Origin: Bacteroides sp. CAG:927 | GTDB taxonomy: Bacteria; Bacteroidota; Bacteroidia; Bacteroidales; Muribaculaceae | Length of the DNA: 64,000 nucleotides | Assembly (NCBI GenBank): GCA_000431155.1 | Contig: HF985638.1 | Span: 20,262-84,261, forward strand | Direction of reading: 5' to 3' | Shown here: positions 2,538-27,939 of the stretch, piece after piece | How the letters are laid out: every line of letters starts with the position of its first letter | Numbering within the stretch: position 1 is the first letter of the stretch | Notes under the pieces: model-generated | What the model saw: the letters and a program-made list of their open reading frames with translations, nothing else | The model's database searches: none | Told to the model about the DNA's origin: nothing | Program-made: the position numbers and the translations under genes

Positions 2538-2623
2538 AATACAAAATTATGAAAAAAGATTGAAAAACTATAATTGTCTGCATGGCATGGCATCCCCCCA
2601 TACAGACAATTACATAACAATCT

Positions 2624-4499: not shown

Positions 4500-5170
4500 A
4501 GGCGCATACCACGTTTCGGCTTTGATACTTCCGGCTCCTGTCTGACTTCAACCTTCCGTATTGCTGACATCTGAGCCGCTATATACCTGTTCAGTTCCGA
4601 CATATTGCACGAGCCTGTCAGCTCATACGCGAGGTCATATATGCCACCGTATGCGCCGGACTTTATATCGCGCCATTGATTGGTGTCGATATTTACAACC
4701 ATCGTCGGCTCTTGCTTTGAATCATACGGAGCATTGTAAATCCGCAGACTGCCGTCGGCTGCAACCGGGTGCTCCTGACCGAGAGCCTTCATAAAGTCGG
4801 TGAGTTTCACTTTCTTTATATCGAGACCAACGGTAATCGGTTCATGCGGGCGACGCGCCGTTGCCGAAAATTCCTTGCCCTGCTCATACTCGTTCATGTA
4901 TTTGAGTATGAAGTCTCTTGGATTCATATATAGCGTCGGTTTCATTTTGAGAGCGGCAAGGTCAATTATGTCACCGGTCTGGTCTGTGGCGTGGTCATAC
5001 CATTTGTTGGTGGAGGTATTGACAACCAGCATCGGCTCAGGGTCATCGCGTTGCGGGGCATAATACAGTTTCATATCCTCGAAGGACTTGACAGGCTTTT
5101 CACCGAGTGCAGCCATAAATTCCGTAAGAGGAATATTGCGGATGTCTTTTTCAGTGTATCTCATAGCCAT
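4496..5170 (-). CDS. ICE protein with two copies of a primase N-terminal-like motif
   Basis: Two internal repeats (KWYDHATDQTGDIIDLAALKM and QWRDIKSGAYGGIYDLAYELTG) resemble the N-terminus of TraP. No toprim domain seen. Confidence 0.4.
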   Translation of the reverse strand: MAMRYTEKDIRNIPLTEFMAALGEKPVKSFEDMKLYYAPQRDDPEPMLVVNTSTNKWYDHATDQTGDIIDLAALKMKPTLYMNPRDFILKYMNEYEQGKEFSATARRPHEPITVGLDIKKVKLTDFMKALGQEHPVAADGSLRIYNAPYDSKQEPTMVVNIDTNQWRDIKSGAYGGIYDLAYELTGSCNMSELNRYIAAQMSAIRKVEVRQEPEVSKPKRGMRL

Positions 5171-5751
5171 TACTCGATTATGAATTTGACACCGACACCA
5201 TACTGGGTGTGAAAAATCTGCACATCGCTACCGAAGGTGAAACGCTCCTTTACATTTGCGGTCAGGGCAATTTTGTCTGACAGGTAGAAATCAGCCTGTA
5301 ATGCCAGCGCACCGCCATAGATAAAGTTGTCGCCGTTATGGAGTGTCGAACCGTCGGATAAAACCGACTTTCCCAAATTCACTGTTTCGTAACCACCGAG
5401 AGCCGACACGCCACCGTAGAGGTGGAAGGTCTGCGAGTAGTCGCTCAACAGATGGAGATTGTAGCCGACCTCGCCTGTGAACTGAGCCACCGGGATACGA
5501 CCTTTCGCGCCGTAGGGCTTGTATGTCTGGAGATACTCGCCGCCAAAGCTCCAAGTATTGGCATTACCCTTATAAACTGAATAGAACGCTCCGAGAGAGT
5601 AACCGCAGTTGCGGGAGTTGCCGGTATAAAAACCGTCTGCCATGTCAGCCTTGATTTCTACTGCCGACATTCCGGGAAGGCATCGCTGGGCCATTGCCCG
5701 CCCTCCAAAGAGGGTGAGCATGGCAGCGATTATCATTATCGCTTTTCTCAT
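5170..5751 (-). CDS. traO: conjugative transposon protein TraO
   Basis: Signal peptide, beta-rich sequence, and its position between traN and traP. Confidence 0.6.
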   Translation of the reverse strand: MRKAIMIIAAMLTLFGGRAMAQRCLPGMSAVEIKADMADGFYTGNSRNCGYSLGAFYSVYKGNANTWSFGGEYLQTYKPYGAKGRIPVAQFTGEVGYNLHLLSDYSQTFHLYGGVSALGGYETVNLGKSVLSDGSTLHNGDNFIYGGALALQADFYLSDKIALTANVKERFTFGSDVQIFHTQYGVGVKFIIE

Positions 5752-5754
5752 TGT

Positions 5755-6777
5755 TTACTGGATTGAAAGTTCGTCAATTACATTGGCTCTCACAATATCC
5801 TCGTTCTCGACCACGAAAGACTGGTGTCTGCCGCCTTCTTTCTCAGCAATTTCGATAACAAGCTGCTTGTCATCGGGGATTGTGAATTTCTCCAGAGCGA
5901 AGACAGTTCTTTCGGAGGATTTGCCGTGTACTACCGTCACATAGTTCTGGGCGCGGAGAGGTTCGAGTACCTGCTCCTGCATTGCGGTACGCTTGATAAC
6001 CTTCTTATCCACAATCTTGAAGCTGATATAATCGACATCGAAAGGAATGTTGGAGGTGTTTTTCAGTTCGGTGTGGAAATAGAGAAGCCCGTTGTTGGCA
6101 TAAATGGATTTCAGGAGGAACTGCACCCCGAAACGCTTTGAGCCGATATGCTTGATTTCGCGCTTGTTCTGCTTGTAGATGCTCTTCATAATCAGCTTGA
6201 CAAGCATCGGCGACTCGCTACCCAACTTTTCGAGGTAGATTTCCTGCGCGTTGTTAGGGCGATTGACAGCTTCACCGTCATGCAAAAAATCGGTCATCTC
6301 GATATTGAGCAACAGCGGCTCTTTGGCAAATTTCACGTTGAAACTATAATAGCTTCCGTCCTCGGTGATTACCGACAGGTTTGTTTCCTGCTTGAACGAC
6401 TTGAAGGCTGATTTGACACGCAGCACATTTTTCGCACCGTCGGCTAATCCTGCGACAAGGTTTTCGTTGCCGAGGTCGCAATAGACTATTTCCGAGGGAA
6501 ATATAATGTGCGTAGTCTTTTCGTAGCAGACTTCGAGAGCGTGAGGCGGTATCATCCGGTCGAAGCCGACCTTGCGGGTCAGACCGTCAAACTTGTCACC
6601 GTCGGTGTAGTTGCCGCCGTACACATTGATGTCGTGTTCTGCTACCTGAGTGGCAACCTGTTCCGTGCCAGACGGCACGTTATTATCGGTGTTTTTAACC
6701 GATTTTGTTCCGGCAAAAGCCGGAGTAGCCATTGCTATAACGGCAATAAGCGAAAGTAAAAAGAGTTTGTAATTCAT
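5755..6777 (-). CDS. traN: conjugative transposon protein TraN
   Basis: Signal peptide; size and sequence typical of TraN (DUF4138 family). Confidence 0.7.
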   Translation of the reverse strand: MNYKLFLLSLIAVIAMATPAFAGTKSVKNTDNNVPSGTEQVATQVAEHDINVYGGNYTDGDKFDGLTRKVGFDRMIPPHALEVCYEKTTHIIFPSEIVYCDLGNENLVAGLADGAKNVLRVKSAFKSFKQETNLSVITEDGSYYSFNVKFAKEPLLLNIEMTDFLHDGEAVNRPNNAQEIYLEKLGSESPMLVKLIMKSIYKQNKREIKHIGSKRFGVQFLLKSIYANNGLLYFHTELKNTSNIPFDVDYISFKIVDKKVIKRTAMQEQVLEPLRAQNYVTVVHGKSSERTVFALEKFTIPDDKQLVIEIAEKEGGRHQSFVVENEDIVRANVIDELSIQ

Positions 6778-6803
6778 TGAATTGTGGATTTAATGGTGAA
6801 TAA

Positions 6804-7994
6804 TCATATATCTTCCGGCTGGTGGAGCATCACACGGTAGCCGGCTTTGAGGTGGACTTTGACGGTTCGCAGCTTCTTGGTGAGATACTGGCTGACACCG
6901 TTTATCAGCCCGCGCCCCACATCAGAGGCAATCTGCGCCCCGGTATTTGTGGAAATATTTATCGAGCTTCCCATCGTACTGCCCATATTTGCACCGATTT
7001 CATGCAGTGCGTCACTTTCCATTGACTGCGGGATATTGATGCCCTCCTGACCGTCGGAGTCATATACCTGCAACTCCACATCGTAAATTGAGCCTTCGCA
7101 CTCGATGGAGGCGATTTCAATCTCCAGCCTTTCGGCCTGCACTCTTGCAGAGCCGACAACGGTGGTGTTACGCGGTATCAGGCGGTTGCCGACCCACATC
7201 GGTTCGACGGTACGGAGTTTTACACTCTCGCCGTCAACTACACTCTGGTTGCCTGCCACCACTGCGGCGATGGTATTCTTGGCGACCTCCCTCATTGTAC
7301 CCACCGAGGTATTGAAGCCCCTGACGGTTGATGTCTGGCTAAGGGAGGATACCACATTTCTGTTGACCTGCGCCACCGGCTGCACATCCCGTTTGCCCTT
7401 TTCTTCGGTGGGTTGTGGCGGTGAATAGTTGCCGCCGTTGCCCATATACTGTGCCGCCAACTGATACGAGCGTTCCATCAGCTCCAGCTCGTCAGGCTGT
7501 GCCGTCTGTTGCTGTGCCAGAGCGTTCTGCGCCTCCAGCTCGTCAATCCGCGCCTGCAACTCTGCGACTTCCTGCGCCTGAGTATTCTCCGGGATATAGA
7601 AATCATTGAGAGAAGCCTGCACCTCCTGATACGCCTGCGCCGAAGTCTCGACAGCGGTTTGACGTGTCACTGTATCCGTGGTATTGGAAAGAGTGTCGAG
7701 AGTGGCAATCTCCACCTGCCGCGCCTCATGCTCCTTTGCGACCTCCGCCGCCGCATACTCCTCCGCTTTCGACTTGATGCCGTCGCTCTCTCCGGCAGGG
7801 ATCTCGGTGTTGAAGGCGTTTCCCCGTGTTTCTTCTGATTTATTCAGACTGGAATATAGCAGCCAGAGAATCACCACACCGCAGAGTATCGCCGCCGGCA
7901 TGACCACGAGGTACTTCATTATCTTCTGCCGTTCAGCCTGCGACTTCGGCTGGAAGAACCCGTTAATCCTCGCTTTCCATTCCTGCATTGTCAT
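6804..7994 (-). CDS. traM: conjugative transposon protein TraM
   Basis: One TM helix, a coiled-coil/Q-rich middle and a conserved C-terminal domain. Sits in the traL-traM-traN order. Confidence 0.7.
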   Translation of the reverse strand: MTMQEWKARINGFFQPKSQAERQKIMKYLVVMPAAILCGVVILWLLYSSLNKSEETRGNAFNTEIPAGESDGIKSKAEEYAAAEVAKEHEARQVEIATLDTLSNTTDTVTRQTAVETSAQAYQEVQASLNDFYIPENTQAQEVAELQARIDELEAQNALAQQQTAQPDELELMERSYQLAAQYMGNGGNYSPPQPTEEKGKRDVQPVAQVNRNVVSSLSQTSTVRGFNTSVGTMREVAKNTIAAVVAGNQSVVDGESVKLRTVEPMWVGNRLIPRNTTVVGSARVQAERLEIEIASIECEGSIYDVELQVYDSDGQEGINIPQSMESDALHEIGANMGSTMGSSINISTNTGAQIASDVGRGLINGVSQYLTKKLRTVKVHLKAGYRVMLHQPEDI

Positions 7995-8292
7995 AGACAG
8001 TCGTGGTTAAGGGTTCAACATTGTGGACGGGCAGATCCAGCGGACTGATATGCCGCACCTCAATCCGGCGCAGTGCCTGACCCAGCCCTATGCGGTAACA
8101 GGCGTGACCGAACACGAAGAAGGCAATAAGGACAAACACGGTCAGCATTACGCCTACGACCGTCACCCGTTTGCCGTGCGGCAGGTCGTCGCAGACCTTC
8201 CGCAACCGGGCCGAGAGCTTCCCCTTGGGGGTGTGCCACACCTTATTATATACGGTGTCTCTCGCGGCACGAAAACCAGAAATCATACTCAT
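7963..8292 (-). CDS. traL: conjugative transposon protein TraL
   Basis: Small membrane protein between traK and traM (DUF3989-like). Confidence 0.5.
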   Translation of the reverse strand: MSMISGFRAARDTVYNKVWHTPKGKLSARLRKVCDDLPHGKRVTVVGVMLTVFVLIAFFVFGHACYRIGLGQALRRIEVRHISPLDLPVHNVEPLTTTVYDNAGMESED

Positions 8293-8915
8293 TATCGTTT
8301 GGTGGTGATTATATCCTTGTTCTCAAGGATGTTGAAACCTTCAATAATAAATCCGTTGGGATTATCGTCGGAACGCGGCACGTTTGAGAGGCGGCAGGTG
8401 GTCACCAGTGTACGCTGTGTCACATTCGACTCACGGATAATCATCTGCTTGGCGTAGGTAGTGGCGGTGTACGGGTAATTGTTGAAATCGCACACCACGC
8501 TGTCAACCTGCACAAACTGATTGATATTCCCCGCTATGATGCGGTTGTAGTAACCCTTCTCCGAGAAATCGGTGTAATAATTGTAAGCCGATTTATCGCT
8601 GAGAATCAGAGCGCGGTTGATGTTATGCTCGATTGCCGACTTGTCGGGCGAAAGGTTGAAGAACAGTTCATGGAATCGGCGCACGTGTTCACGGGCCTCA
8701 GCCGGACGGTTCTGGCTCATATCCTGCGAAAGAGCGAGCATCAGCGACTTGCCGTTGTCGAGGACATAGATTTTCTCACGCTGCTTCTCTGCGAAATTGA
8801 AAACCATAATCAGAGCCACCGACACAACCACGGCACACATTGCCACAAAGACTATACCGAACAGGCGTATCTGACGGAAAGATGTCTCGATATTCTTTAA
8901 TGACTTAAACTCCAT
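8292..8915 (-). CDS. traK: conjugative transposon protein TraK
   Basis: N-terminal TM helix, about 207 aa, TraK-like sequence. Confidence 0.7.
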   Translation of the reverse strand: MEFKSLKNIETSFRQIRLFGIVFVAMCAVVVSVALIMVFNFAEKQREKIYVLDNGKSLMLALSQDMSQNRPAEAREHVRRFHELFFNLSPDKSAIEHNINRALILSDKSAYNYYTDFSEKGYYNRIIAGNINQFVQVDSVVCDFNNYPYTATTYAKQMIIRESNVTQRTLVTTCRLSNVPRSDDNPNGFIIEGFNILENKDIITTKR

Positions 8916-8919
8916 AATT

Positions 8920-9936
8920 CTACTTTAATAGTTTGCCAGCGCGACCGGCGACATTTCCTGCAACCGCGCCTCCGACGCTTGCCGCTCCTGAGCCTACCTG
9001 CATGGCGGTATTGTTGACAGCACGGTTATAGTTTCCGGCACCTCCGGCTTGTATTATCCAGCCTGCCACAGTGGGGATTGTGAAATAACCGATAATTCCG
9101 ATGATCATGAAGACCGTATATGCGGTGTTGCTTCCGTCGAGGTCGATATTCGGATTGTTAGTCAGTTCCGAAATATCGTTCTGGAGCATCAGCACCTGTA
9201 TTTTCGCAAGGATTGTCGAAAACAGGTCTGCGACAGGCAACCACAGATAGGTCTGAATGTAGCGGCAGATCCACTGTGTCAGTGTTGACTGAAAACCGTC
9301 CCATACGGAGAGGGCAAATGAAATCGGCCCCAGTATCGCCAGCACTATCAGGAAGAAAGTGCGGATAGTGTCAATCGTGAGAGAGGCAGCCTGAAAGAGC
9401 ATCTCCAGCAGCTCACGAAAGAAATTCTGGATTGCCTTTTTCACCTTATACATTCCGCGCTCGATATACATTCCGGCGGCTGTTCCGATTTCAGTAACAC
9501 CGAGTTCATCAATCTGCCTGTCAAACTCGGCATCATCGACAAGATAGGCTGTTGAGGGGTCATTCATCATCGCCTCATACTCCAGCCGGTCTTTCTCCTC
9601 GCGGTACTTCTTCATGTCGAGAGTCTGCCCTTCGAGCATCGAAGCCGTACCCTGCACAATCGGCGACATCACAGAGTTGATTGTGCCGAGTACCACCGAC
9701 GGGAAAAACATTATACAGAAGCCTATTACAAACGGACGCAACAATGGGAACACATCAATCGGTTCGGCTGCGGCAAGTGACCGCCAGATGCGGTATGCCA
9801 CATAGAACAGCGCGCCTAATCCGGCTATCGCCTGAGCCACACCCGCCATATCCTCGCAGAGTGGCATCATCTCGTCATAGAGCGAGCGGAGAATGGTGTG
9901 GAGGTTTGAAAAATCAATAGCACACAACATAGGCAT
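8920..9936 (-). CDS. traJ: conjugative transposon protein TraJ (polytopic membrane protein)
   Basis: Multiple TM helices. Its start overlaps the traI stop (ATGA). Confidence 0.7.
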   Translation of the reverse strand: MPMLCAIDFSNLHTILRSLYDEMMPLCEDMAGVAQAIAGLGALFYVAYRIWRSLAAAEPIDVFPLLRPFVIGFCIMFFPSVVLGTINSVMSPIVQGTASMLEGQTLDMKKYREEKDRLEYEAMMNDPSTAYLVDDAEFDRQIDELGVTEIGTAAGMYIERGMYKVKKAIQNFFRELLEMLFQAASLTIDTIRTFFLIVLAILGPISFALSVWDGFQSTLTQWICRYIQTYLWLPVADLFSTILAKIQVLMLQNDISELTNNPNIDLDGSNTAYTVFMIIGIIGYFTIPTVAGWIIQAGGAGNYNRAVNNTAMQVGSGAASVGGAVAGNVAGRAGKLLK

Positions 9937-10574
9937 CACCAGTATTTTTCAGAGCCGTCGCCATAGAGAGCCACCACACGCTGCGTATCAGCTTTCTTTT
10001 TGGCGCGCAGATATGACACGCTGATATTCTTGTTCGTGTAGTATGCCGTCAGGTTCTTCAGCCTTTTCATCTCCTTGTAGCAGTCATCGACCACATCCAT
10101 ACGGTCTTTGTCAGTCATACTCAGCGTAGTGATATTGACTACCTGCTTCAAGTCGCCCAGCACTCCGTTGGCTTCTTCGAGGATACGGGTGTAGCCTGAG
10201 GCGATTGCCGATAGTTCAGCCGATGTGAAGTTCGGATCGGTCAGCATCTTCTGGAAATTATTGACGTAATAGCCGGAGATATTGCCGAGCATCAGGATTG
10301 TCTGCTGCACCTTTCGGGCATCACGGACGAGGTTATTGACCGACTGGAGAGCGTCGTAATACTTTTTCGCCTGCTGGTAAATTTTCACGGTTTCCTGAAA
10401 ATTTTTGACCATATGCGTAGCCGTCTGCGATTCCTGAACGAGTGATTTGGAGTTGTTTACGATGGACTGGGCGATGTTTGACGGATCGATTACCGTCCAT
10501 TGGGCGGAAGCCCTGCCCGTGCCGAGCATCAGGCACAGGGCAATCAGGGAGATTAAAAACTTGAGTTGCTTCAT
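9936..10574 (-). CDS. traI: conjugative transposon protein TraI
   Basis: Start placed at MKQLKFLISLIALCLMLG (signal peptide) rather than the upstream open frame. About 212 aa. Confidence 0.6.
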   Translation of the reverse strand: MKQLKFLISLIALCLMLGTGRASAQWTVIDPSNIAQSIVNNSKSLVQESQTATHMVKNFQETVKIYQQAKKYYDALQSVNNLVRDARKVQQTILMLGNISGYYVNNFQKMLTDPNFTSAELSAIASGYTRILEEANGVLGDLKQVVNITTLSMTDKDRMDVVDDCYKEMKRLKNLTAYYTNKNISVSYLRAKKKADTQRVVALYGDGSEKYW

Positions 10575-10600
10575 TTGATTGCGGATTAAAAGTGGTGGAT

Positions 10601-10735
10601 TTATCGTATTCTGTGAGCCATGCCGACGATTGTACGGGCAATGACTGCCAATAGATGAAGGGTGACTGTCAGGAGGAGGACGAGGCAGACGAGTATTCCT
10701 GACATGATACTGGAAAATATTGATTTCACTTTCAT
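10601..10735 (-). CDS. TraH-like small hydrophobic protein (44 aa)
   Basis: Translated by hand as MKVKSIFSSIMSGILVCLVLLLTVTLHLLAVIARTIVGMAHRIR. Lies between traG and traI, where traH sits in CTnDOT. Too short for the ORF track. Confidence 0.35.
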   Translation of the reverse strand: MKVKSIFSSIMSGILVCLVLLLTVTLHLLAVIARTIVGMAHRIR

Positions 10736-10738
10736 ACA

Positions 10739-13240
10739 TTATTTCTCTATCCTTTCGTTGGCTAACTGTTTGATTGCGGCTTCGATGTCGCCGCCGAGCT
10801 GACGGGCGCGGTCAAGGACTTGGATTTTCTCCGTTTCCTCGGTGGTGTAGCATAGGTATTCCTCTGGCGATACCTCAGTTGCATAGACAGCGGACTGCGT
10901 TCCGCCCAGCCCAATCCAGACTTCTTTGTATAGCCTTCCCGGATTATTTGCCATATTGATACTGAGTATCTGCGCTTTCTCCTTGTCGGTCAGACCGAGC
11001 AGCTCCTGTATCTGGTCAAAGCGGTTCATATATTTCCGCTGATCCATAAGGATTTTACAGTCGGAGTTGTTGATGATTGTCTCCTTGACAATCGGCGACG
11101 AGATAATATCGTCAACCTCCTGAGTGACAACCACCGCCTCACCGAAATACTTGCGCACCGTCTTGAACATATAGCGCATATACTCAGCCATGTTTGCGGT
11201 TGACAACGCCTTCCAAGCCTCCTCGCATATAAGAAGTTTTCGCACGCCTTTCAAGCGTCGCATCTTGTTGATGAAGGCTTCCATGATGATAATCGTTACC
11301 ACAGGAAACAGGTCTTTATTGTCGCGGATAGCGTCAATCTCGAATACCACGAAACGCTTGTTGAGCAGGTCGATGTTCTCCTTTGAGTTCAGCAGGAAGT
11401 CAAAGCGACCGCCATGATAATATTGCCTTAAAGTAGTCAGGAAGTTGTCGATGTCAAAATCCTGCTTATAGATGGGGATAGGACGCTGTGCCATTTCAGC
11501 ACGGTAATCGTCGCGCATGAACTCGTAGAAGGAGTTGAAGCAGGGAACGATGTTGCGGTCTTTCTTCATCTTTTCAAGGAACATAGACAGCGCGGAGCCA
11601 AGCTCACCCGATTCAGTCTTTGTCACGCGGTCGTCTTCCGACTTCCAGAGCGTGAGAAGCAGCGTCTTGATGCTGTCCTTCTTCTCCACATCGAAAACCC
11701 CGTCGTCGGTGAAGAACGGATTGAAGGAAATCGGCTTTTCCTCCGTGTAAGTGTAATACACACCGTCCTCGCCGTGGGTACGGTTATGGATAAGGTTGCA
11801 CAGTCCTTCGTATGAATTGCCGGTATCAATCAGCAGGATATGCGCGCCTTGCTCGTAATACTGGCGCACCAGATGGTTGGTGAAGAACGACTTGCCGCTA
11901 CCCGACGGGCCGAGGATGAACTTGTTGCGGTTTGTGGTTATGCCGCGCTTCATCGGCTCATCGGAAATATCCAGGTGGACAGGCTTACCCGTGAGGCGAT
12001 CAACCATCTTTATACCGAATGGCGACAGTGACGATCGGTAGTTTGTTTCTGCGGTGAAAAAACAGACGGCAGGCTCTATGAAAGTATAGAAACTTTCCTC
12101 AGCGGGGAAATCCGCCTCGTTACCGGGCATAGCAGCCCAGAACAGCGTCGGGCAGTCGATGGTGTTGTGCCGTGGCATACACCCCATAGTAGCAAGCTGA
12201 CCGCCGACATCGTTCTTGATGCGCCGCAGTTCCTCGGCATCATCGCTCCACGCCATGATGTTGCAGTGGCAGCGCACGGAGGTGAGGCCGTAGCTGTGTG
12301 CCTCGTTCAGATAGCGGTCTATCCACTCCTTGTTTATGGCGTTTGAGCGTGAGTAGCGGCTCAACGAGTTCATATTGCGCGCCGTCTTTTCAAACTTCGC
12401 CAAGTTTTCGTCGTGGTCGTCGATGAATACATACTGGTTATAGATATGGTTGCACGGCAGGAGCAGACCCACGGGAGAGGCGAAGCTCAATCTGCAATCG
12501 GAGCGGTCGGTTGACAGGCGTTCATAACGGTTATCGGTGCTGACTTTCGAGGGTAGATCATCCGTGTCTGACAGAGTGTGAAGGCACAGCATCTTGTCGC
12601 CGATACGCATTTCTTTCGGTGACAGGTCGATATCCTCCAGACAGTTGACATTACCTATCGACAGCGACAGATACTTTTCTATGATACCGGAAGTTGTGTC
12701 TGTACCGATTATCTCATCGTCACCCATTCGGCGCAGCGTTATATAGCCGGTGTCGTTGATAATGCGCTCGAACTGCCCGACAGCTTCCATGAAGCCCACA
12801 ATCATCTCGTGATTGAGTTCCTTCGGAGTGATACGCCCACGGCAGAGAGTGGAAAAATTGGACTGCTGGCGCATACGCTCCTTTGTGGTCTTTGTCAGAT
12901 ACAGGTAACACTTGTGCGCCAGATACGGACGCTCGTTGAAATGACGCTCGAAAGAACGGTCGAGGAACGAAAGGTTATCCTTTTGCAGTTCCGGCTTATA
13001 GTTCTCCGACACGAACCAGTCCTGCTTGTGTGCCACCGTGAAGCGGGGCAATACCTTGATAGCCTTGCACCAAGCGGCGTGCATCGCCTCGTATTCCTGT
13101 GATGTGACGGTGAACAGTTCCGGAAGGCTAACCTCGAAGGCCACCGTTATATCGGCGTCCTTCGAGATGATGCAGCCGTGTTCCACTGCAAGGAGCGGCA
13201 GCTTCGATTCCAGTGTTGTGGCTTTAAGTGTATTTCTCAT
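10739..13240 (-). CDS. traG: TraG, VirB4-like conjugation ATPase
   Basis: Walker A motif GPSGSGKS. About 833 aa from the internal start MRNTLKATT (ATG at 13238-13240, overlapping the traF stop); the upstream in-frame extension is treated as non-coding. Confidence 0.85.
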   Translation of the reverse strand: MRNTLKATTLESKLPLLAVEHGCIISKDADITVAFEVSLPELFTVTSQEYEAMHAAWCKAIKVLPRFTVAHKQDWFVSENYKPELQKDNLSFLDRSFERHFNERPYLAHKCYLYLTKTTKERMRQQSNFSTLCRGRITPKELNHEMIVGFMEAVGQFERIINDTGYITLRRMGDDEIIGTDTTSGIIEKYLSLSIGNVNCLEDIDLSPKEMRIGDKMLCLHTLSDTDDLPSKVSTDNRYERLSTDRSDCRLSFASPVGLLLPCNHIYNQYVFIDDHDENLAKFEKTARNMNSLSRYSRSNAINKEWIDRYLNEAHSYGLTSVRCHCNIMAWSDDAEELRRIKNDVGGQLATMGCMPRHNTIDCPTLFWAAMPGNEADFPAEESFYTFIEPAVCFFTAETNYRSSLSPFGIKMVDRLTGKPVHLDISDEPMKRGITTNRNKFILGPSGSGKSFFTNHLVRQYYEQGAHILLIDTGNSYEGLCNLIHNRTHGEDGVYYTYTEEKPISFNPFFTDDGVFDVEKKDSIKTLLLTLWKSEDDRVTKTESGELGSALSMFLEKMKKDRNIVPCFNSFYEFMRDDYRAEMAQRPIPIYKQDFDIDNFLTTLRQYYHGGRFDFLLNSKENIDLLNKRFVVFEIDAIRDNKDLFPVVTIIIMEAFINKMRRLKGVRKLLICEEAWKALSTANMAEYMRYMFKTVRKYFGEAVVVTQEVDDIISSPIVKETIINNSDCKILMDQRKYMNRFDQIQELLGLTDKEKAQILSINMANNPGRLYKEVWIGLGGTQSAVYATEVSPEEYLCYTTEETEKIQVLDRARQLGGDIEAAIKQLANERIEK

Positions 13241-13554
13241 TTGCGTCCTCCCTTCATTATATTGCGCACACGCAGACGGTTGATGATATAGCGGGGGCGG
13301 TACTTCACCGAGGTGAGTTTCATAAGACCATACTGCCCGTACTTGCCATTGAGGTGGAAGGTGTACCACACCAGAGCCGACGCGCTCACGGCACCGAAGC
13401 CTATGCACAGCCCCTGCTGTACACCGCACATATAGAGTACCACGAACAGAATGAAATCGGTTATCAGACCTCCGGCGAAAATGAACAGGTACTGGGCTTT
13501 CAGCCCCTTGTATTCCACCGTCCTGCCTATGCCCTTGTTGATAGAATATTCCAT
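13237..13554 (-). CDS. traF: conjugative transposon protein TraF
   Basis: 105-aa membrane protein (DUF4133-like). Its stop overlaps the traG start. Confidence 0.6.
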   Translation of the reverse strand: MEYSINKGIGRTVEYKGLKAQYLFIFAGGLITDFILFVVLYMCGVQQGLCIGFGAVSASALVWYTFHLNGKYGQYGLMKLTSVKYRPRYIINRLRVRNIMKGGRK

Positions 13555-13567
13555 TGATACGGGGGAA

Positions 13568-13924
13568 TTAGAGGAAGAACGAGCGCAGGATTGTGGCGGC
13601 TACCACGAGGAATATACAGGCACCGAACCATGAGGCGGCAGTCTTCGATGTGTCTGGATCGCCGGAGCTGAACTTGCCATAGACCTTGACACCGCCGATA
13701 AGACCCACCACCGCGCCGATGGCATAGATCAGTTTCGTGGCGGGGTCGAAATAGGAGGTCATCATCGAGGTAGCCTCGTTGATACCCGCCAGACCGTTGC
13801 CAGCGGCGTAGAGGTTGGCTGCACACAGCAAAAGTGTGAGCATCATCGCCATAGGGCGACGCATACCGGGAGCGTTCATAAACTCCACGATACGTTTGTA
13901 GAGCGACTTGAAGAAATCAGTCAT
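13568..13924 (-). CDS. traE: conjugative transposon protein TraE
   Basis: Start taken at MTDFFKSLYK (13924), which avoids overlap with traD. DUF4134-like membrane protein. Confidence 0.6.
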   Translation of the reverse strand: MTDFFKSLYKRIVEFMNAPGMRRPMAMMLTLLLCAANLYAAGNGLAGINEATSMMTSYFDPATKLIYAIGAVVGLIGGVKVYGKFSSGDPDTSKTAASWFGACIFLVVAATILRSFFL

Positions 13925-13961
13925 AAATAAAATGGGGTTTGGATTGTGGATAAAGTGGTGG

Positions 13962-14702
13962 TCAGTGAAAGATATTGAAGTCGATTGCATCAATATCGGT
14001 AGTGTCGATGTCGGCATGGAAGACAATCTTTTTCTTCGGCGCGGCATCATCGGATTTTCCGGGAGGATTGTCATTCTCCTCCGTTGTGTCCGGGAGCTGG
14101 CACTCGATCATCAGAATGCGCTTGCGCACGACCGGGTCGAGTTTGACATACTCTATAATCTCCGTGCCTTCAAGTTCGGGGAGGACACGGCGGGCAATCT
14201 TCTCGTCCTCGTCTGTGTGCGGCTTGTCTTTCAGTACCTTCATTGTCGATTGCAGCTCGTCGAAGTCAATGCCCTCGGCGTTGGCATCCGCCGGAGGCGG
14301 AGTCTCTCCCGTAAGCTCGCTCACTGAATGAGTGGAGAATATCTCGTCCAGTTTATCGACGGGAATCTGAGCAGTCGGCTTTTCTTCGGGAATGTCGGGG
14401 AATCCGGCATCGGCAGGTGTGCCGATTTCCTTAATTATCAGCGGCACCACCTCCTTTGCAGCCTCCGTCGCGGCTTCTTTCGCTATCTCTCGGAAAGAAT
14501 CCATGAACTGACCGACATCGAAATTGCTTTTGCCGATTACCTCAGTCGGGGCTTCGGCAGCCCTGTCCGGGTCTGGCGGCGCGGAATTCTCCACGGTGTC
14601 GGCTACTTCCTTACCGGCGGGAGGTGTCTCCGGCTTTTTCAGGACTTTCCTGATGAGCCATACATTGCTTGCGAGCAATGCGATAATCAACAGCGTCTCC
14701 AT
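13962..14702 (-). CDS. traD: TraD-position protein (Pro/Glu-rich, one TM helix)
   Basis: N-terminal TM helix and an acidic, low-complexity body. Sits between traC and traE. Confidence 0.45.
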   Translation of the reverse strand: METLLIIALLASNVWLIRKVLKKPETPPAGKEVADTVENSAPPDPDRAAEAPTEVIGKSNFDVGQFMDSFREIAKEAATEAAKEVVPLIIKEIGTPADAGFPDIPEEKPTAQIPVDKLDEIFSTHSVSELTGETPPPADANAEGIDFDELQSTMKVLKDKPHTDEDEKIARRVLPELEGTEIIEYVKLDPVVRKRILMIECQLPDTTEENDNPPGKSDDAAPKKKIVFHADIDTTDIDAIDFNIFH

Positions 14703-15001
14703 CAGAAAAGGCTTTGGCTGTTTTCATCATACAGACCTTCCATCACCTCGCGGTTGTTGGCGAAGTGGTCGAGGATTATCTCGGAGACGTATGAGCCGAT
14801 GGACATACCGCTTTTGCGGAATCTGTCAGCCATTCGGCTGAGCACGGCGTGTACTTCGGGATAGATATACACTTTGTTATGGGAACTGATAATGCCGGGC
14901 TTCAGAAATTTGGCGGCATATCTTTTGCGTTCCTCTGCGGTTCTGGCATCAATGTCAGCGACCGGGTTCACATTGATTGTGACAATTGGTGATTTGGGCA
15001 T
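14702..15001 (-). CDS. traC: conjugative transposon protein TraC (DUF3408-like)
   Basis: Small protein following traB, as in the CTnDOT order. Confidence 0.5.
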   Translation of the reverse strand: MPKSPIVTINVNPVADIDARTAEERKRYAAKFLKPGIISSHNKVYIYPEVHAVLSRMADRFRKSGMSIGSYVSEIILDHFANNREVMEGLYDENSQSLF

Positions 15002-15007
15002 AGCTGG

Positions 15008-15421
15008 TTAGAGTTTGGGGTTGATGACGTCGGCGTACTCCTCGAAGTGAGCGGCCAGCACGTTGTTGATATACGATTTGAGGGAACAAGAACCGTTCTC
15101 GAAAGCGATCAGCCTCTTTATCTTGCCGATTATAACGGGGTCTATCTCCACCATAAGGAATTTGACCTGCGGGCGCAGATAAGTTGTTCTCGTTATAAAC
15201 CGTTCCCTGAACAGTCGTTCGCGCTCTTCATCGGAAGATGGTTGCTCAGGAGCTGATTTAACGGACATGGCGTATTCCGCTTTCTGTTCCGATGAACCGG
15301 TTGTATCCGGCAGGGGACCTTCTTTCGGCTTCCTGTTCAGCGATGACAGCGAGGAGGGCTCCTCCCGGAAAGACCTGATGAATTCATCGGGGTCGATTTC
15401 AGACTCATACTTCTTTGCCAT
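15008..15421 (-). CDS. traB: conjugative transposon protein TraB (DUF3408-like)
   Basis: 137 aa, between traA and traC. Confidence 0.5.
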   Translation of the reverse strand: MAKKYESEIDPDEFIRSFREEPSSLSSLNRKPKEGPLPDTTGSSEQKAEYAMSVKSAPEQPSSDEERERLFRERFITRTTYLRPQVKFLMVEIDPVIIGKIKRLIAFENGSCSLKSYINNVLAAHFEEYADVINPKL

Positions 15422-15426
15422 AGCGG

Positions 15427-16182
15427 TCAGAGTTTGAGTAAGCCGAGGAGTTCGTCGGTGAGTTCAGGGAGACGCGTGCCTTTGAGCAGCGTCCTGTCGG
15501 GAGGCATCACCGTGGAGCGGAACACAGCGCGGTTAAGGGTCTTTGACCCCTCGCGGCGATACTTCTTGGTATCGGGAATCTTCGTCTTCATGGTCTGAAG
15601 CCCGTATTCCTCAAACACCGCCTCATACTGGTCATAGAGGTCGGTCTTCTCGCGGGCATCGACAAGATTCCAGAGCATATACATCTGCTTTACCGAAGCG
15701 CGCCCGGTTGTGAGCCACTCCTGTATCTTCAGGGCGAAGGCGAGCGAGCTTTCAAGTATCACCTTGTCGGCGGCGACAGGGACAATCACGGTATCCATAC
15801 AGTTGAGTATGTTTACGACACCGCGGTTGTTGACCGTGCCGGGGAGGTCGAAGAAAACGATGTCGATTTCATTGCCGCCCTCGACGATTTCACGCACCTT
15901 CCGCATGGCTTCCTCCGGCTTTGCCGTCAGAAGCGGATAAGGCGCGAGCTTGGTCTGGCGCATATTATCGGAAAAAAGTTTCTTGAACTGGGGACTGCAT
16001 TCAATCAGGTCTCTGTCGCGCTGCCGCATCTCCTCGATGCTGAACTGCGGGTAGTCACAGTCCACGACAAGGACTTTCAGCCCCTTCACATAGTAGAGGT
16101 AACTCGCCGCAAGAACGGTCAGAGTCGTTTTGCCCGCTCCACCTTTCTGGGTGGAGAAAGCGACAAATTTAGGGTCTGCCAT
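15427..16182 (-). CDS. traA: TraA, ParA/MinD-family ATPase
   Basis: Deviant Walker A motif KGGAGKTT. First gene of the tra operon. Confidence 0.8.
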   Translation of the reverse strand: MADPKFVAFSTQKGGAGKTTLTVLAASYLYYVKGLKVLVVDCDYPQFSIEEMRQRDRDLIECSPQFKKLFSDNMRQTKLAPYPLLTAKPEEAMRKVREIVEGGNEIDIVFFDLPGTVNNRGVVNILNCMDTVIVPVAADKVILESSLAFALKIQEWLTTGRASVKQMYMLWNLVDAREKTDLYDQYEAVFEEYGLQTMKTKIPDTKKYRREGSKTLNRAVFRSTVMPPDRTLLKGTRLPELTDELLGLLKL

Positions 16183-17147: not shown

Positions 17148-17315
17148 ATGAACACTGCAAGTTATGTTTCCCGGCACACGAATCGAAGATTGTGCCACGG
17201 AAAACACTTGCAATGTAAACATTGGGAAGATTCACTCCGAAGTCGTAAATCCATACGATGGGCTGCGCCGCCTTATGCTGCCGCAATGCGGTTACACCAC
17301 TTAAATCCACTTTTT

Positions 17316-20758: not shown

Positions 20759-23700
20759 ATGGCTTACAATAAGTTGCAGACAATGCGCGACAATATCAAT
20801 GCCATACGCTGTGCGTTTCAGATCGGTGTTGAAAAGCGCGCTCCCGACCCCATAGAGAGGGTTGTACTCGGCAGGTACTCCGGCTTCGGCGGGCTGAAAT
20901 GTATCCTCAACGATGCCAACGAGCTTGCCGATGCCGCCAAGTGGAGCAAGTCGGATATTGAGCTGTTCGCGCCGACGGTGGAACTGCGCCGTATTGTCCA
21001 CGACTATTCGCTCAATGACAAGGAGTTTAACCGCTACATGGAATCGCTTAAAGCTTCGGTGCTGACAGCATTCTATACGCCTCAGTCTGTTGTTGACGCC
21101 GTTTCCGACGCGCTGAAAGATGCCGGTGTCGATGTCAAAAGATTTCTTGAACCGTCTGCCGGTCAGGGGGCGTTTATCGACTCTTTCCTACGGAATGACA
21201 GATACCCCGGTGCCGAAGTGCTTGCGTTTGAAAAGGATTTGCTCACCGGTAAAATTCTGTCAGCTCTGCACCCATCAATCCTGACCCGCATAGAGGGCTT
21301 CGAGAAGATAGACTCCGATTTCAACGGATACTTCGACGTGGCTGCATCCAATGTTCCTTTTGGAGATTTCGCTGTGGCTGACCCCGTGTATGCGACAAGC
21401 AAGGAAATTGGCTACCGTCAGGCGGCAAAGTCGTTGCACAACTACTTCTTTCTCAAAGGTCTTGACCAAGTGAGAGAGGGAGGACTGATTGCCTTTATCA
21501 CGTCGCAGGGTGTGATGAACGCTGCTTCGCCCTTCATAAGAATGGAGTTAGTGAAACAGGCTGACCTCGTGGCTGCTCTGCGTTTGCCCAACAACACTTT
21601 CAGCGACAACGCCGGAACTGATGTTGGCTCTGACCTGATTATTTTCCAGAAGCACACCGGAAAGAAGTCATTGTCTGCCGATGAGGAATTTTTCATCCAG
21701 TCGGTTGTTGACCGTGGCACGAAAGTTTCGGGCAACAAGTTCTTTCAGGTTTTTCCTCAGAATGTAATCTGCACTGATGCGAAAGTCGGCACTGACCAAT
21801 ATGGCAAACCGGCTATCGTCTATACCCACAAGGACGGCATAGGCGGTATTGCCCGTGACCTGCATGACGCTTTAACCCTGTCATTCCGTCTGCGCCTGAA
21901 TCTGGAACTGTATAATTCCAACGGTATCAAGCCGCCGACGCCTGATCCCATCACGCCTAAACCAAAGGAAACTCCGAAAGCGGAAAAGAAGCCGAGCCTC
22001 ACCAATACATCTCTGATGCAACAGTATCAGGAGATGAAAAAGAAACATCCCGATGCTATTCTGCTGTTCCGCATTGGTGATTTCTATGAAATATTCGGCG
22101 AGGATGCGGTAAAGGCGTCGGAGATTTTAGGTATAACCCTGACCCGCAGAGCGAACGGCAGTGACAAATATATAGAGCTTGCTGGATTTCCGCATCACGC
22201 GCTCGACACATACCTGTCTAAGCTCGTAAGAGCCGGGCAACGTGTGGCTATCTGTGAGCAACTCGAAGACCCGAAGCTGACAAAGACCGCCAAGCAAAAG
22301 GTCGTAGAGATTGTTACGCCCAATGCTGAAACACAGAAAGTTGAGCAATCTGATAATGTACCTTCGGATTCCATTCCGCAACAGGCGAAGGAAATAGAAA
22401 CCGACGGGGGCCCGGATTATTCCGACAATCCCGACCCGCGTCTGTTCGCCTATAACCTTTTCGGGGAACTGGAGCCGAGGGACGCGCCAAAACGCCAGCG
22501 TACTGCTATGCCCAAGAAAGAGAAGGAGGAAAAGCCGGTCGAAAAGCCGAAACCGTGGGCTGATGCCAAACCGTTGCCGACAAATAAATTCCGACCGCTT
22601 ACTGAAAAGGAGCTGGAATTTTACGGTTCTCTGAACTGGGACGATAATCCGCCTATCAACGGGTTCTACGAGGCTATGATGTCAATCGCATACGCCCAGC
22701 TTGCGGAGCGTGAGCGTCAGGCGGCTGAAAAAGAAGCCAACAAGGATTATAAATCCGAAACTATCGTCGAGGGTGGCACTGTAATCGAGAAAACCGAAGG
22801 CGTTTTCATACCCGGCAGACAGCCAAGAGTGGCGGCACAGCAGTCGGAGAAAACCGAGGTCGATATGTCGCCCCGTCCTTTCTCGGAGGATATTCTGTTC
22901 TTTCACCACAACGGCAGTATGGTGGTGCAGGACGGTATGGTAGGTTTCCTCTCGGAAGTCCGCAAGAACAGCGCGACATTCAATCCGTTGGAATTGAAGC
23001 CGGAACAGGCGAAGCGCGCCATGCTCTATGTCACTCTGTCGGAGACTTATCAGCAACTCTACAACTATGAGGCTGAAACGCATGAACCATCGGAACATCT
23101 GCGCGAACACCTCAATCAGTACTATGATGAGTTTGTGGAGAAATACGGCAACCTAAATGAGAAAAAGAATGTGAAATTCATTCTCATGGATGCCAACGGC
23201 AGGGACGCGCTGGCATTGGAGCGGGGCGAGAACGGTCGGTTTGTCAAGGCTGACATTTTCGACCATCCCGTTTCATTCGCCATTGACGGGGTTACTTCTG
23301 TAGATACCCCGTTGGAGGCACTGACTGCATCGCTCAATAAATACGGTGTCGTCAACCTCGAATATATGTCATCGCTTGTGGATATGGATGAGGATTCATT
23401 GGTAGATAACCTCGAAGGTCACATATATTATAATCCGCTTGTCAGTAGCTATGAGGTCAAAGACCGTTTCATAGCCGGAAATGTAGTGGCAAAAGCCGAT
23501 AATGTCAGGGCATGGATTAACCATGAGGAAGAACGGATAAAGGACTTCCCCGGATATGATGGTGTAGAACCATTTATCGCCTTGTCGAAGGACTCCCTCA
23601 AAGCGTTGGAGGATGCCCGTCCGCGCCGTATCGAGTTCGACGAGCTGGACTTCAATTTTGGTGAGCGATGGATACCCACCGGCATATACTCCGCCTATAT

Positions 23701-26700
23701 GTCGTACCTCTACCATACCGATGTGAAGATTTCCTATTCCGCTTCTATGGATGAATACTCGGCAGAGGCGAGTCGCAAGAATGTGACCATCTGGGAGGAA
23801 TTCTGCGTAAGGGGTCACTATCGCACCTACGACGGCATGAACCTGTTGAAACACGCTCTGCACAATACTGTCCCCGACATAAAGAAATCAATCGGCAAGG
23901 ACGAGAACGGAAACGACATCAAGGTTCCCGACAGCGAGGCTATCCAACTCGCCAATACAAAGATTGAGGAGATACGCAACGGATTCAGCGAATGGCTTGA
24001 AGCCCAGTCGCCTGAGTTCAAGGAGCGTCTTGTTGATTTGTATAATGACAAGTTCAACTGTTTCGTGCGTCCCCGCTACGATGGCTCACACCAGACATTC
24101 CCGGATCTGAACATGAAACTTCTCGGTGACCGTTATGGAATCAGCTCGATTTATCAGTCACAGAAGGACTGTATATGGATGCTGAAACAGAACGGAGGCG
24201 GTATATGTGATTTCGAGGTCGGTTGTGGTAAAACGTTGATAATGTGTATTGCAGCGCATGAAATGAAGCGTCTTGGACTGGCTCACAAGCCTATGATTAT
24301 CGGGCTGAAAGCCAATGTCGCCGAGATTGCCATGACGTACCAGACGGCATATCCCAATGCCCGCATATTGTTTGCCGATGAAAAGAGTTTCAAGGCTGAC
24401 AACCGCGTCAACTTCTTCAACCGGATCAAGAACAACGACTACGACTGCGTGATAATGTCGCACGACCAGTTCGGCAAGATACCGCAGTCGCCGGAAATGC
24501 AGCAACAGATTCTTCAGGCGGAGCTTGACACGGTTGAGGAGAATCTCGAAGTGCTGAGGCAGCAGGGTCACGATATAAACCGGGCTATGCTGAAAGGTCT
24601 TATCAAGCGTAAGGAGAACCTTACCGCCAAAATTGCCACCATTCAGTACCAGATGGATCAGAACAAGGACGCTGTCGTTGACTTCAAGCAGATGGGTATC
24701 GACCATATATTCGTTGACGAGTCGCATCAGTTCAAGAACCTTATGTTCAACACCCGACATGACCGAGTGGCGGGATTGGGCAACTCGGAAGGCTCACAAC
24801 GTGCGCTCAATCTTCTCTACGCAATCCGTACCATTCAAGAGAGAACCGGTAAGGATTTGGGAGCAACATTCCTGTCGGGTACAACAATCAGCAACTCGCT
24901 CACTGAATTGTACCTGTTGTTCAAGTATCTGCGCCCGAAAGAGCTTGAAAGGCAGGATATACGGTGCATAGACGCTTGGCTGGCGATTTTCGCAAAGAAA
25001 ACAACCGATTTCGAGTTTAATGTCACCAATAGAATTGTGCAGAAAGAGCGTTTCCGTTACTTTATCAAAGTGCCGGAGCTTGCGGCATTCTACAACGAAA
25101 TAACGGATTACCGTACTGCCGAGGATGTAGGCGTTGACCGTCCTGCAAAGAACGAGATACTGCATAATATCCCTCCGACACCTCAGCAGGAGGACTTCAT
25201 CGGGAAACTGATGAAGTTTGCCGAGAGTGGCGACGCTACGATACTCGGCAGAGCACCACTTTCTGAAACGGAAGAAAAGGCGAAGATGCTTATCGCCACG
25301 GACTATGCCCGAAAGATGGCTCTTGACATGAGGCTTATTTCTGCGGCATACGATGACAATCCCGACAACAAAGCCTCGCACTGTGCCCGGATGATTGCCG
25401 AATATTACCGCAAATACGATGAGCAGCGGGGCACTCAGTTTGTGTTCAGCGACCTCAGCACCTACAAGCCCGGCGAGTGGAACATCTATTCCGAAATCAA
25501 GCGCAAGCTGATTGAGGATTACGGTATTCCGGCGCATGAGATACGTTTCATTCAGGAGTGCAAGACAGAGAGGTCGAGAAAGGCTGTCATTGAGGCGATG
25601 AACAGCGGCGACGTGCGTGTGCTTTTCGGTTCTACAAGTATGCTCGGCACAGGAGTTAACGCCCAGCGCAGGGCTGTCGCCGTCCATGAACTGGAATGCC
25701 CGTGGCGACCCAGCGACTTGGAACAACGCGAGGGACGTGCAATCCGCGCCGGCAACGAGATTGCCAAACTCTATGCCGACAATAAGGTGGATGTCATCAT
25801 CTATGCTGTGGAGAAATCGCTGGACTCCTACAAGTTCAACCTTCTCCACTGCAAGGCGACATTCATCAGCCAGCTCAAGCGTGGCGCGCTCGGAGCGAGG
25901 ACAATCGACGAGGGCGCGATGGACGAGCAGAACGGCATGAACTTCTCGGAATATATGGCTATTCTCAGCGGCAACACCGACCTTCTCGAAAAGGCGAAAC
26001 TTGAAAAACGGATAGCCTCGCTGGAGAGTGAGCGCAAATCATTCGGCAAGGGACGAGCTGATTCGGAGTCAAAGCTGGAGCTGACAAACCACAACATCGC
26101 CAACAACGAGGCGACGGTTGCGCAGATGAAAGCCGATTATGCCCGTTACGAGGCTGTGGTACAGCGAGACAAAGACGGCAACCCCGTCAACAATCTCACC
26201 ATCGACACCTGTCAGCTTACCGACGAGAAGAACATGGGTATCCACCTGCAAGGGTTGGCGATAAACACCAATACCAACCGCCGTTACCAGCGTATCGGAG
26301 AAATTTACGGATTCCCGATTTCCATCATATCCGAACCGACGGTGGTTGACGGTCACGAGAGTGTGCAGAACCGCTTTGTAGTCGAAGGCAACTTGAAATA
26401 CAAGTACAACAATGGCTTCATAGCCATGAGCGACACCCATGCCGCCTGCATGAACTTCGTCAACGCACTGGAAAAGATACCCGGCATCATCGCCCAGTAT
26501 GAGGAACGCACCGCCAGACTCAAAGCCGATGTTCCCCAGCTCGAAGCAATCATCGCCAAGACATGGGGCAAGGAGGACGAATTGAAACAACTCAAATCAG
26601 AACTCGCCGCCCTCGACCGCAAAATCACTGCCGAACTGGCACCGAAAAAGGAAGAGCAGGACGGCGTTGAGAATAAACCGGCTTCAACCGTTGAAGTCAA

Positions 26701-26800
26701 TACCACAGTGGTGGACGCTCCTTCAACATCTGACGACCAGAAAAAGTCAATGGTGGCAGAACCTGCATCAACATACCAAAACATACGCCCCAGACTATAA
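20759..26800 (+). CDS. 2013-aa fusion: N6-adenine DNA methyltransferase, MutS domain I and an SNF2/DEAH helicase with a coiled-coil C-terminus
   Basis: MTase motif [10 protein letters not shown] and motif IV NVPFGDF. MutS mismatch-binding domain with GDFYEIF (22000-22330). Helicase Walker A GCGKT (about 24222), DEAH-type DESHQF (about 24716) and motif [10 protein letters not shown] (about 25723). Confidence 0.8.
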
Positions 26801-27931: not shown

Positions 27932-27939
27932 CTGCTAAT

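Follow-up and report, generated by a model that had tools for sequence, protein, structure and literature searches.

A probable DarB-family methylase-helicase of a CTnDOT-type conjugative element from a Muribaculaceae bacterium carries a mismatch-contacting MutS domain I in a linker

We analyzed a 64,000-nt stretch of contig HF985638.1 from Bacteroides sp. CAG:927 (64 kb; hereafter the window, meaning the whole of that stretch), which by its gene content contains most of a CTnDOT-family integrative and conjugative element (ICE). One gene in it, the giant gene at 20759..26800 on the + strand, encodes a 2013-residue protein in which a complete first domain of the mismatch repair protein MutS (MutS-I) lies in a disordered linker between a predicted N6-adenine DNA methylase and the region that leads to a predicted SNF2-like ATPase. 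The open reading frame (ORF) listing and the translation agree that the gene is a single unbroken frame of 2013 codons, as the original prediction, made from the sequence alone, had stated. Fusions of methylase, MutS-I, and helicase are already known and were catalogued in 2017, and the present protein is unremarkable within a large ICE family of Muribaculaceae. What is new here is the nature of MutS-I as a cassette within a linker, a series of orthologues with zero, one, or two copies of it, its origin from the host, the conservation of its core, and the lack of an accompanying ArdC-N domain.

The assignment of MutS-I rests on profile and pairwise comparisons. The original prediction had placed the domain at about residues 415-520, and a Pfam search that could have failed to recover it instead matched the MutS_I model (PF01624) to residues 417-523, covering profile positions 1-108 of 113 with an E value of 9.4e-37 and a score of 126.1 bits against a gathering cut-off of 20.6. 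Residues 416-527 align with residues 10-122 of Escherichia coli MutS (phmmer against PDB sequences, E = 4e-28), and a search of PDB sequences returned MutS proteins only. The motif strings quoted in the original prediction all lie where it put them, including SLMQQYQ at 418-424 and GDFYEIF at 440-446. The alignment brings G440-D-F442-Y-E444 onto E. coli G34-D-F36-Y-E38, with F442 on F36 and E444 on E38. In MutS, Phe36 and Glu38 stack on and hydrogen-bond with the mismatched base, and affinity for DNA is due mainly to the other domains and to the dimer, not to domain I (PMC3848065).

The remainder of MutS is missing. The NCBIfam MutS equivalogs TIGR01070 and NF003810 scored 144 bits (cut-off 480) and 134 bits (cut-off 642), respectively, matching over positions 2-113 alone, and no Pfam match to MutS_II, MutS_III, MutS_IV, or MutS_V was found in the 2013-residue protein. 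Because the equivalogs stop at position 113 and the later Pfam domains do not match, we conclude that the connector, core, clamp, and ATPase domains of MutS are absent, in line with the earlier reading.

Judged by its conservation, the cassette is evidently under strong purifying selection. Among 121 close homologues, its core (residues 441-520) is 95-98% identical to the query, equal to the catalytic cores, whereas the flanking linkers are ≈78% identical. In addition, 47 genuine MutS proteins have 53 columns with a conservation of 90% or more, of which 45 are unchanged in the cassette, and five of the eight changed columns fall at residues 512-522, where MutS runs on into its connector domain. 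The cassette is 66-69% identical to the annotated mutS products of Phocaeicola, Parabacteroides, and Bacteroides, and up to 72% (median 66%) identical to connector-bearing MutS representatives, which have a median identity of 71% among themselves. Identity to the MutS of E. coli is 49% and to that of Firmicutes ≈50%. Because identity to Bacteroidales MutS (66-72%) so exceeds that to E. coli MutS, these comparisons identify a Bacteroidales host-type MutS as the evident source from which the cassette was captured, a call that rests on annotated mutS matches in a plasmid collection. A 6019-residue protein, P0126, suggests more than one capture event, since its first MutS-I copy is 74% identical to a genuine MutS and only 55% identical to the window cassette. 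Base composition was also considered as a sign of recent insertion and rejected, the GC content at third codon positions being 0.54 in the cassette and 0.60-0.64 in the rest of the gene, a gap too narrow to support it.

When species-representative genomes were scanned, 80 orthologous loci were obtained, and their alignment reveals MutS-I to be a discrete cassette inserted in a disordered linker. One copy is present at 46 loci, almost all of them from Muribaculaceae or from metagenome-assembled genomes (MAGs) labelled Porphyromonadaceae or Bacteroidales. Two tandem copies, with FYE intact in both, occur at six loci (L018, L019, L021, and L025-L027). Another 26 loci, from Bacteroides, Parabacteroides, Phocaeicola, Prevotella, Butyricimonas, and Riemerella, have no copy and encode proteins of 1923-1948 residues with 62-66% identity to the window protein; the remaining two are fragments that do not reach the cassette site. 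In the copy-less orthologues, the site between the end of the methylase and an invariant block (residues 626-641) is occupied by a Pro/Lys/Glu/Thr-rich linker alone. The 1938-residue copy-less form goes under the annotation "N-6 DNA methylase [Bacteroides fragilis]" and is very abundant, with 7114 members in a single 90% cluster. Because the cassette is optional, absent from widespread orthologues and doubled in others, it cannot be central to the core activity of the protein.

Several loci in this set show further features. Muribaculaceae bacterium MF13079 (CP061009.1) has two ICE copies of the gene, one with a single cassette (L008) and one with two (L019). In a MAG locus (L023, ≈10261-10595), a frameshift falls within the MutS-I segment, reflecting either a pseudogene or an assembly error. 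In L054 and L055 (≈12490-14860), and also in L052, a group II intron splits the giant-gene orthologue; its products are a reverse transcriptase, a maturase, and an HNH protein.

The enzymatic parts of the protein were compared with both domain models and known families. The predicted gamma-type N6-adenine methylase and SNF2-like helicase of superfamily 2 (SF2) do flank MutS-I, as judged from motifs, Pfam matches of orthologues, and DarB-like homology. In the methylase we read TP (T107-P108), motif I EPSAGQGAF (131-139), and motif IV NVPFGDF (198-204, with N198-V-P-F201), and in the ATPase, motif I GCGKT (1155-1159), DESHQF (1320-1325, with motif II DESH at 1320-1323), and motif VI QREGRAIR (1656-1663). 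Residues of the catalytic motifs are invariant across the orthologue alignment down to 54% identity, as are G42, F43, G44, G45, and the residues of TP and motif IV. Among the local Pfam models, MutS_I and Helicase_C (35.9 bits against a cut-off of 23.5, E = 1e-8) score above threshold, whereas the Eco57I methylase (19.1 bits against a gathering score of 25.3) and the SNF2 N-lobe, SNF2-rel_dom (17.4 against 24.9), both fall below it, so for these two domains we rely on the motifs, on precomputed PF02384 and PF00176 matches in orthologues, and on full-length DarB-like homology. The middle region (residues 626-1130) is covered by phrog_10089, phrog_11801, and phrog_1685 in PHROGs, and no known fold could be assigned to it. 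A precomputed Pfam string of PF28553, PF28554, PF01624, PF28556, PF00271, and PF28555 is common to all 120 of the 120 relatives listed. The models PF28553, PF28554, PF28555, and PF28556 are not in the local Pfam copy; a newer Pfam release seems to hold curated models for the head, methylase-associated, middle, and C-terminal regions of the giant-gene family.

Membership in the DarB family is highly probable. In PHROGs, the protein matches phrog_10089, "DarB-like antirestriction," with an E value of 1.2e-278, and tblastn against phage genomes returned 172 records, many with 28-31% identity over ≈80% of the length (E ≈ 1e-130) and annotated as DarB-like. DarB of phage P1 is collinear with the window protein, its methylase being 28% identical over 386 residues (E = 9e-24) and both of its ATPase lobes matching. 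The methylase-helicase dyad has been defined by an LPD36 head with GxG[GAS], a TP motif, a motif IV of NPP(Y/F) type, and an SNF2-like ATPase (PMC5512222), and all of these features are present, namely G42-F-G-G45, T107-P108, N198-V-P-F201 as an NPPF variant, and an ATPase C-terminal to the methylase. DarB of P1 acts in cis, shielding the DNA of the phage against type I restriction (PMC5512222).

The C terminus, which had been predicted to form a coiled-coil tail, is indeed largely helical. It comprises a long helix (≈1740-1800), an alpha/beta domain (≈1844-1883), further helices (1885-1959), and a variable tail (1961-2013) that is poorly conserved among close homologues. Only residues ≈1740-1959 of this module were confidently modelled by AlphaFold2 (predicted local distance difference test score, pLDDT, 73-93). 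With homologue alignments of 56 rows, mean pLDDT was 48.7 for residues 405-1135 and 55.9 for residues 1130-2013, with the MutS-I segment at ≈50 and linker 2, which follows it, below 50. A Foldseek search of PDB with the MutS-I segment of this low-confidence model (pLDDT ≈50) gave MutS 5yk4_B as its top match at E = 0.12, and the low-confidence ATPase model gave generic matches to SF2 enzymes and SNF2 remodellers. This output supports no structural or geometric claim; the cassette probably adopts the MutS domain I fold, judging by its 49-72% sequence identity to MutS and not by the model.

The gene is not a product of misassembly, a possibility raised together with the original prediction. NCBI holds a 100%-identical protein, named "helicase family protein [Bacteroides sp. 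CAG:927]," and intact orthologues occur in dozens of independent assemblies, among them the complete genomes CP061009.1 and OX620685.1 and the type-strain drafts of Duncaniella muris, Paramuribaculum intestinale, and Lepagella muris.

MutS-I has been described outside MutS by Iyer, Burroughs, Anand, de Souza, and Aravind (J Bacteriol 2017), who reported it in "polyvalent proteins" of Bacteroidetes and Firmicutes as its sole occurrence outside MutS and proposed that it may recognize the incoming element at short segments that are single-stranded or mismatched (PMC5512222). The NCBI name of close homologues is "MutS N-terminal domain-containing protein." The window protein has the polyvalent trait, with methylase, MutS-I, and ATPase in one ORF beside a relaxase, a type IV coupling protein, and tra genes. 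ArdC-N is found in 93% of conjugative polyvalent proteins and in ≈80% of those that bear MutS-I (PMC5512222). It had no Pfam match in the window protein, and tblastn found it neither across the 64-kb window nor up to 9 kb from any of the 80 orthologues. ArdC-N is a frequent, not an obligatory, feature of polyvalent proteins.

Elsewhere, MutS-I occurs in the arrangements ArdC-N + MPTase + MutS-I, MutS-I + ArdC-N + MPTase + MutS-I, DarA_C followed by three MutS-I copies, and DUF285 followed by four MutS-I copies and ArdC-N. In P0126, whose layout comes from local phmmer searches, the dyad linker lacks the cassette and two MutS-I copies lie further downstream. The recurrent fusion to ArdC-N + MPTase and to DarA_C places MutS-I among the DNA-binding establishment modules, as Iyer and colleagues proposed. 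Across 38 non-MutS copies, the Phe is kept in 30 and the Glu in 29, and the exceptions are mostly in multicopy proteins, most of which still have one intact FYE. P0130, P0139, P0198, P0211, P0217, P0231, and P0126 each have two to four detected copies, mostly one with F-Y-E and others that are degenerate (e.g., V-I-K, V-Y-V, Y-Y-N, and R-C-H). By analogy, such arrays of intact and degenerate copies are reminiscent of the asymmetric MutS dimer and of MSH2-MSH6, in which one subunit contacts the mismatch. A predicted 494-residue protein, P0251, combines a MutL N-terminal ATPase, DNA_mis_repair, and MutS_I, and is either a real fusion or a frameshifted or miscalled mutL-mutS junction.

Taken together, these features suggest a composite enzyme, a reading to which we give about even odds: a DarB-type establishment and anti-restriction enzyme of a CTnDOT-family ICE to which a MutS-I sensor of DNA structure has been added. 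The enzyme would be made together with the mob and transfer genes, and it would enter the recipient along with the DNA or else be expressed there at an early stage. It would load on the incoming element, its SNF2-like motor would translocate along the DNA, and, by analogy with P1 DarB, it might methylate adenines of the element before host restriction acts. MutS-I, held on flexible linkers, would serve as an accessory sensor or tether, with its Phe wedge testing for bases that are unpaired, mismatched, or unstacked. Candidates for such sites are imperfect hairpins formed by the transferred strand, junctions of single- and double-stranded DNA during complementary-strand synthesis, and heteroduplex att joints. 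By binding, MutS-I could help the enzyme to load, or to stay longer, on element DNA that has just arrived and not on the resident chromosome; the cassette would improve targeting of a core reaction that runs without it. The recognition of heteroduplex or distorted DNA put forward in the original prediction, whether to target methylation or to block mismatch repair or restriction, is plausible; it coincides with the published hypothesis and fits the strong conservation of Phe-x-Glu.

Several observations weigh against this composite. The copy-less 1938-residue orthologue is the commoner form, so any benefit of the cassette would be lineage-specific. On its own and as a monomer, domain I may have little affinity for DNA or a changed specificity. 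The order of mob operon and then giant gene is found in ≈12 related loci, and elsewhere the mob genes are convergent and downstream, making the linkage frequent but not universal. Delivery with the DNA through the type IV secretion system is an assumption, because ArdC of R388 reportedly acts when expressed in the recipient and not in the donor. The structure models are too poor to bear on geometry. Finally, our literature search turned up no experiments on DarB-like proteins of conjugative elements or on MutS-I domains outside MutS, which accords with the earlier description of the architecture as catalogued but functionally unexplained.

A different role for the same domain would be to shield element DNA from mismatch repair, an explanation we consider unlikely. 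The cassette would compete with host MutS on the element, with the methylase-helicase serving to track along DNA, and the sites protected might be intermediates of homeologous recombination or the joints with heteroduplex "coupling sequence" that IntDOT-type integrases leave behind; the newcomer would then be neither nicked, excised, nor rejected by host mismatch repair. IntDOT-type integrases tolerate heterology in the overlap and leave heteroduplex joints, and the element has an integrase of that family. Moreover, the mismatch-contacting Phe-x-Glu is intact and highly conserved, and the cassette originates from MutS of the host's own order, as a competitor for the same substrate would need. 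The classical CTnDOT-type orthologues of Bacteroides and Parabacteroides, however, do without the cassette; a single domain I without clamps is unlikely to outcompete dimeric MutS; and elsewhere the domain accompanies ssDNA-binding anti-restriction modules, not recombination genes. We know of no contact between MutS domain I and MutL or other partners, so any block of mismatch repair would operate only through competition for DNA and not through a protein decoy.

We regard it as improbable that the protein is instead a defense enzyme, that is, a single-chain system resembling restriction-modification, BREX, or DISARM that protects the host or excludes competitors. It has weak matches to DrmD, BrxH, PglX, and MAD2 models, and the pairing of a methylase with an SF2 ATPase is also seen in type I, type III, and type ISP enzymes (PMC5512222). 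These matches lie far below cut-off (27.4 bits against 610 for DrmD and 14.4 against 900 for PglX), those in PADLOC are generic and weak, and neither Pfam nor PADLOC revealed a nuclease domain in the protein. The full-length family match is to DarB-like antirestriction, and the gene lies in the mob/tra backbone, not in the cargo region.

Linker 2 bears on a further alternative, in which the MutS fragment or a motif near it recruits or titrates the beta sliding clamp or MutL. A conserved motif beside the cassette reads [RH]L[FY][AT]YNL[FL]G in essentially all MutS-I-bearing orthologues, and in MutS-I-less orthologues (L053 and L056-L080) the same site reads Q[LFM][TS]L[LF]DL[WF]G, with VQLSLFDLW in P0126. 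The beta-clamp-binding consensus is QL[SD]LF. The MutS-I-less form, as Q-L-[TS]-L-[LF]-D-L-W-G, resembles this consensus and may be a docking site for a host protein. In the window lineage, a clamp-binding motif was rejected, R or H standing where the consensus needs Q. The motif is present with or without MutS-I and so leaves the cassette unexplained, and domain I is not a recognized surface for MutL or the clamp, its documented role being DNA contact. A decoy of this kind therefore seems very unlikely. Least credible of all is a neutral passenger or an assembly artifact; although the cassette is dispensable in sister lineages and the L023 copy is frameshifted, this is essentially refuted by a core as conserved as the catalytic motifs, the retained Phe-x-Glu, and the intact gene in dozens of independent assemblies.

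An extension of the composite reading, which we offer as a long shot, is that Bacteroidales mobile elements have repeatedly captured the host MutS wedge, and that here it recognizes and occupies mismatched or unpaired sites on element DNA, for example heteroduplex att joints or imperfect hairpins in the strand that is transferred, directing methylation to them and/or hiding them from mismatch repair. If true, this would be the first factor encoded by an element that is known to antagonize or hijack mismatch recognition, and the series of zero, one, and two copies, along with the arrays of intact and degenerate copies, would mimic the asymmetric MutS dimer.

The surroundings of the giant gene agree with the conjugative location that had been predicted. 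By Pfam, the window has the gene set of a CTnDOT-family ICE, with genes of TraG/J/K/M/N/O/Q type, a MobC-relaxase-coupling protein cluster, and an IntDOT-type integrase. The giant gene begins 120 nt downstream of the coupling-protein gene on the same strand. The integrase directly adjoins a tRNA-Lys gene, and the ICE probably ends there on the right, at its attachment site; on the left, the ICE continues past the start of the window, which opens with a PcfJ-like gene from position 2. Downstream of the giant gene is a cargo block (27020-41000) with a lower GC content of 0.39-0.45, three AraC-family regulators, and two paralogous sets of genes for an alpha/beta hydrolase, a cyclophilin-like protein, an Fe-alcohol dehydrogenase, and a flavodoxin/FMN reductase; the two Fe-alcohol dehydrogenase copies (30778-31950 and 37719-38891) are 66% identical. 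Beyond the cargo follow an NtrC-like regulator, DUF4099/DUF3945, a topoisomerase, and then the integrase. Scans for inverted repeats in the presumed oriT region (16150-17200) and of the 120-nt gap upstream of the giant gene, using models that are not of Bacteroidetes promoters, gave nothing informative.

Table 1. Features of the giant gene and of the surrounding element, in window coordinates
Feature	Position (nt)	Strand	Basis
Whole gene: probable DarB-type "polyvalent" methylase-helicase with MutS-I insert, 2013 aa	20759..26800	+	Intact ORF, PHROG, DarB homology
N-terminal helical domain, LPD36-like, aa 1-95, with G42-F-G-G45 (G-x-G-[GAS])	20759..21043	+	Boundary approximate
Predicted gamma-class N6-adenine DNA methyltransferase, aa 96-395	21044..21943	+	Motifs, weak Eco57I, PF02384 on orthologues, P1 DarB match
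Linker 1, Pro/Lys-rich, aa 396-415	21944..22003	+	Low complexity, lower conservation, variable in orthologues
MutS domain I cassette, aa 416-523	22004..22327	+	Pfam MutS_I, E. coli MutS alignment
Phe-x-Glu: F442	22082-22084	+	
Phe-x-Glu: E444	22088-22090	+	
Linker 2, disordered, aa 524-625	22328..22633	+	Low complexity, pLDDT <50
Conserved short motif inside linker 2, aa 561-573	22439-22477	+	
Family-specific middle region, aa 626-1130, opening with invariant block 626-641	22634..24148	+	Conserved in orthologues and P0126 dyad
Predicted SF2, SNF2-like ATPase/translocase, aa 1131-1720	24149..25918	+	Helicase_C, motifs, PF00176 on orthologues
C-terminal module, aa 1721-2013	25919..26797	+	Modelled part
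Transfer genes: lysozyme, TraQ, primase-like, TraO, TraN/DUF4138, TraM, VirB8-like, TraJ, TraG ATPase, DUF4134 pilin, ParA/DUF3408	1881..16182	-	Pfam
MobC_2	17148-17741	+	Pfam
Relaxase	17720-19042	+	Pfam
Type IV coupling protein	19061-20638	+	Pfam
IntDOT-type tyrosine integrase	47780-49015	-	Pfam Phage_integrase, Arm-DNA-bind_5, Phage_int_SAM_5
tRNA-Lys(ttt)	49518-49591	-	ARAGORN

How conjugative elements of gut Bacteroidales pass recipient defenses is poorly understood, and DarB-type methylase-helicases are among their commonest and least studied backbone genes. Our finding confirms and refines a published catalogue entry. A repair sensor grafted from the host suggests that new DNA may be told from resident DNA by its structure, and the natural series of zero, one, and two cassettes at one linker, along with a clear host origin, provides a clean genetic handle.

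Comparison with known systems places the window protein among several relatives. With MutS itself (E. coli, PDB 1E3M, and Bacteroidales), it shares a domain I that is homologous over its full length, at 49% and 66-72% identity, respectively, with the GxFYE motif. MutS, in contrast, has connector, core/lever, clamp, ATPase, and dimerization domains, all of which the window protein lacks; judged from this domain content, it cannot be a sliding clamp, hydrolyze ATP in the manner of MutS, or recruit MutL. The ArdC-N + MPTase + MutS-I proteins (P0208, P0177, and P0130) have a MutS-I that is 66-70% identical, an intact Phe-x-Glu, and a mobile-element anti-restriction scaffold. There, the partners of the domain are the ssDNA-binding ArdC-N and a zincin protease, whereas in the window protein they are a methylase and an ATPase. 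Like the MutS-I polyvalent proteins of Iyer and colleagues more generally, it is encoded by a conjugative element and combines a non-MutS domain I with other domains, but it belongs to the minority without ArdC-N, and its MutS-I sits within the methylase-helicase dyad. The 1938-residue orthologue of CTnDOT-type ICEs of Bacteroides, Parabacteroides, and Prevotella (e.g., P0308 and P0346) is 62-66% identical and has the same precomputed Pfam string, differing in having the disordered linker alone at the cassette site. P1 DarB is a virion protein injected with the DNA, whereas the window gene is ICE-borne beside mob genes and delivery of its product is only presumed; P1 DarB and the phage relatives examined are also without MutS-I, and methylase identity to P1 DarB is low (28%). 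Even so, P1 DarB and the phage proteins of phrog_10089 share with the window protein a helical head, a gamma N6-adenine methylase, a family-specific region, an SNF2-like ATPase, and a long C terminus, with homology to phage DarB-like proteins over ≈80% of the length, and in each case the gene belongs to an invading element.

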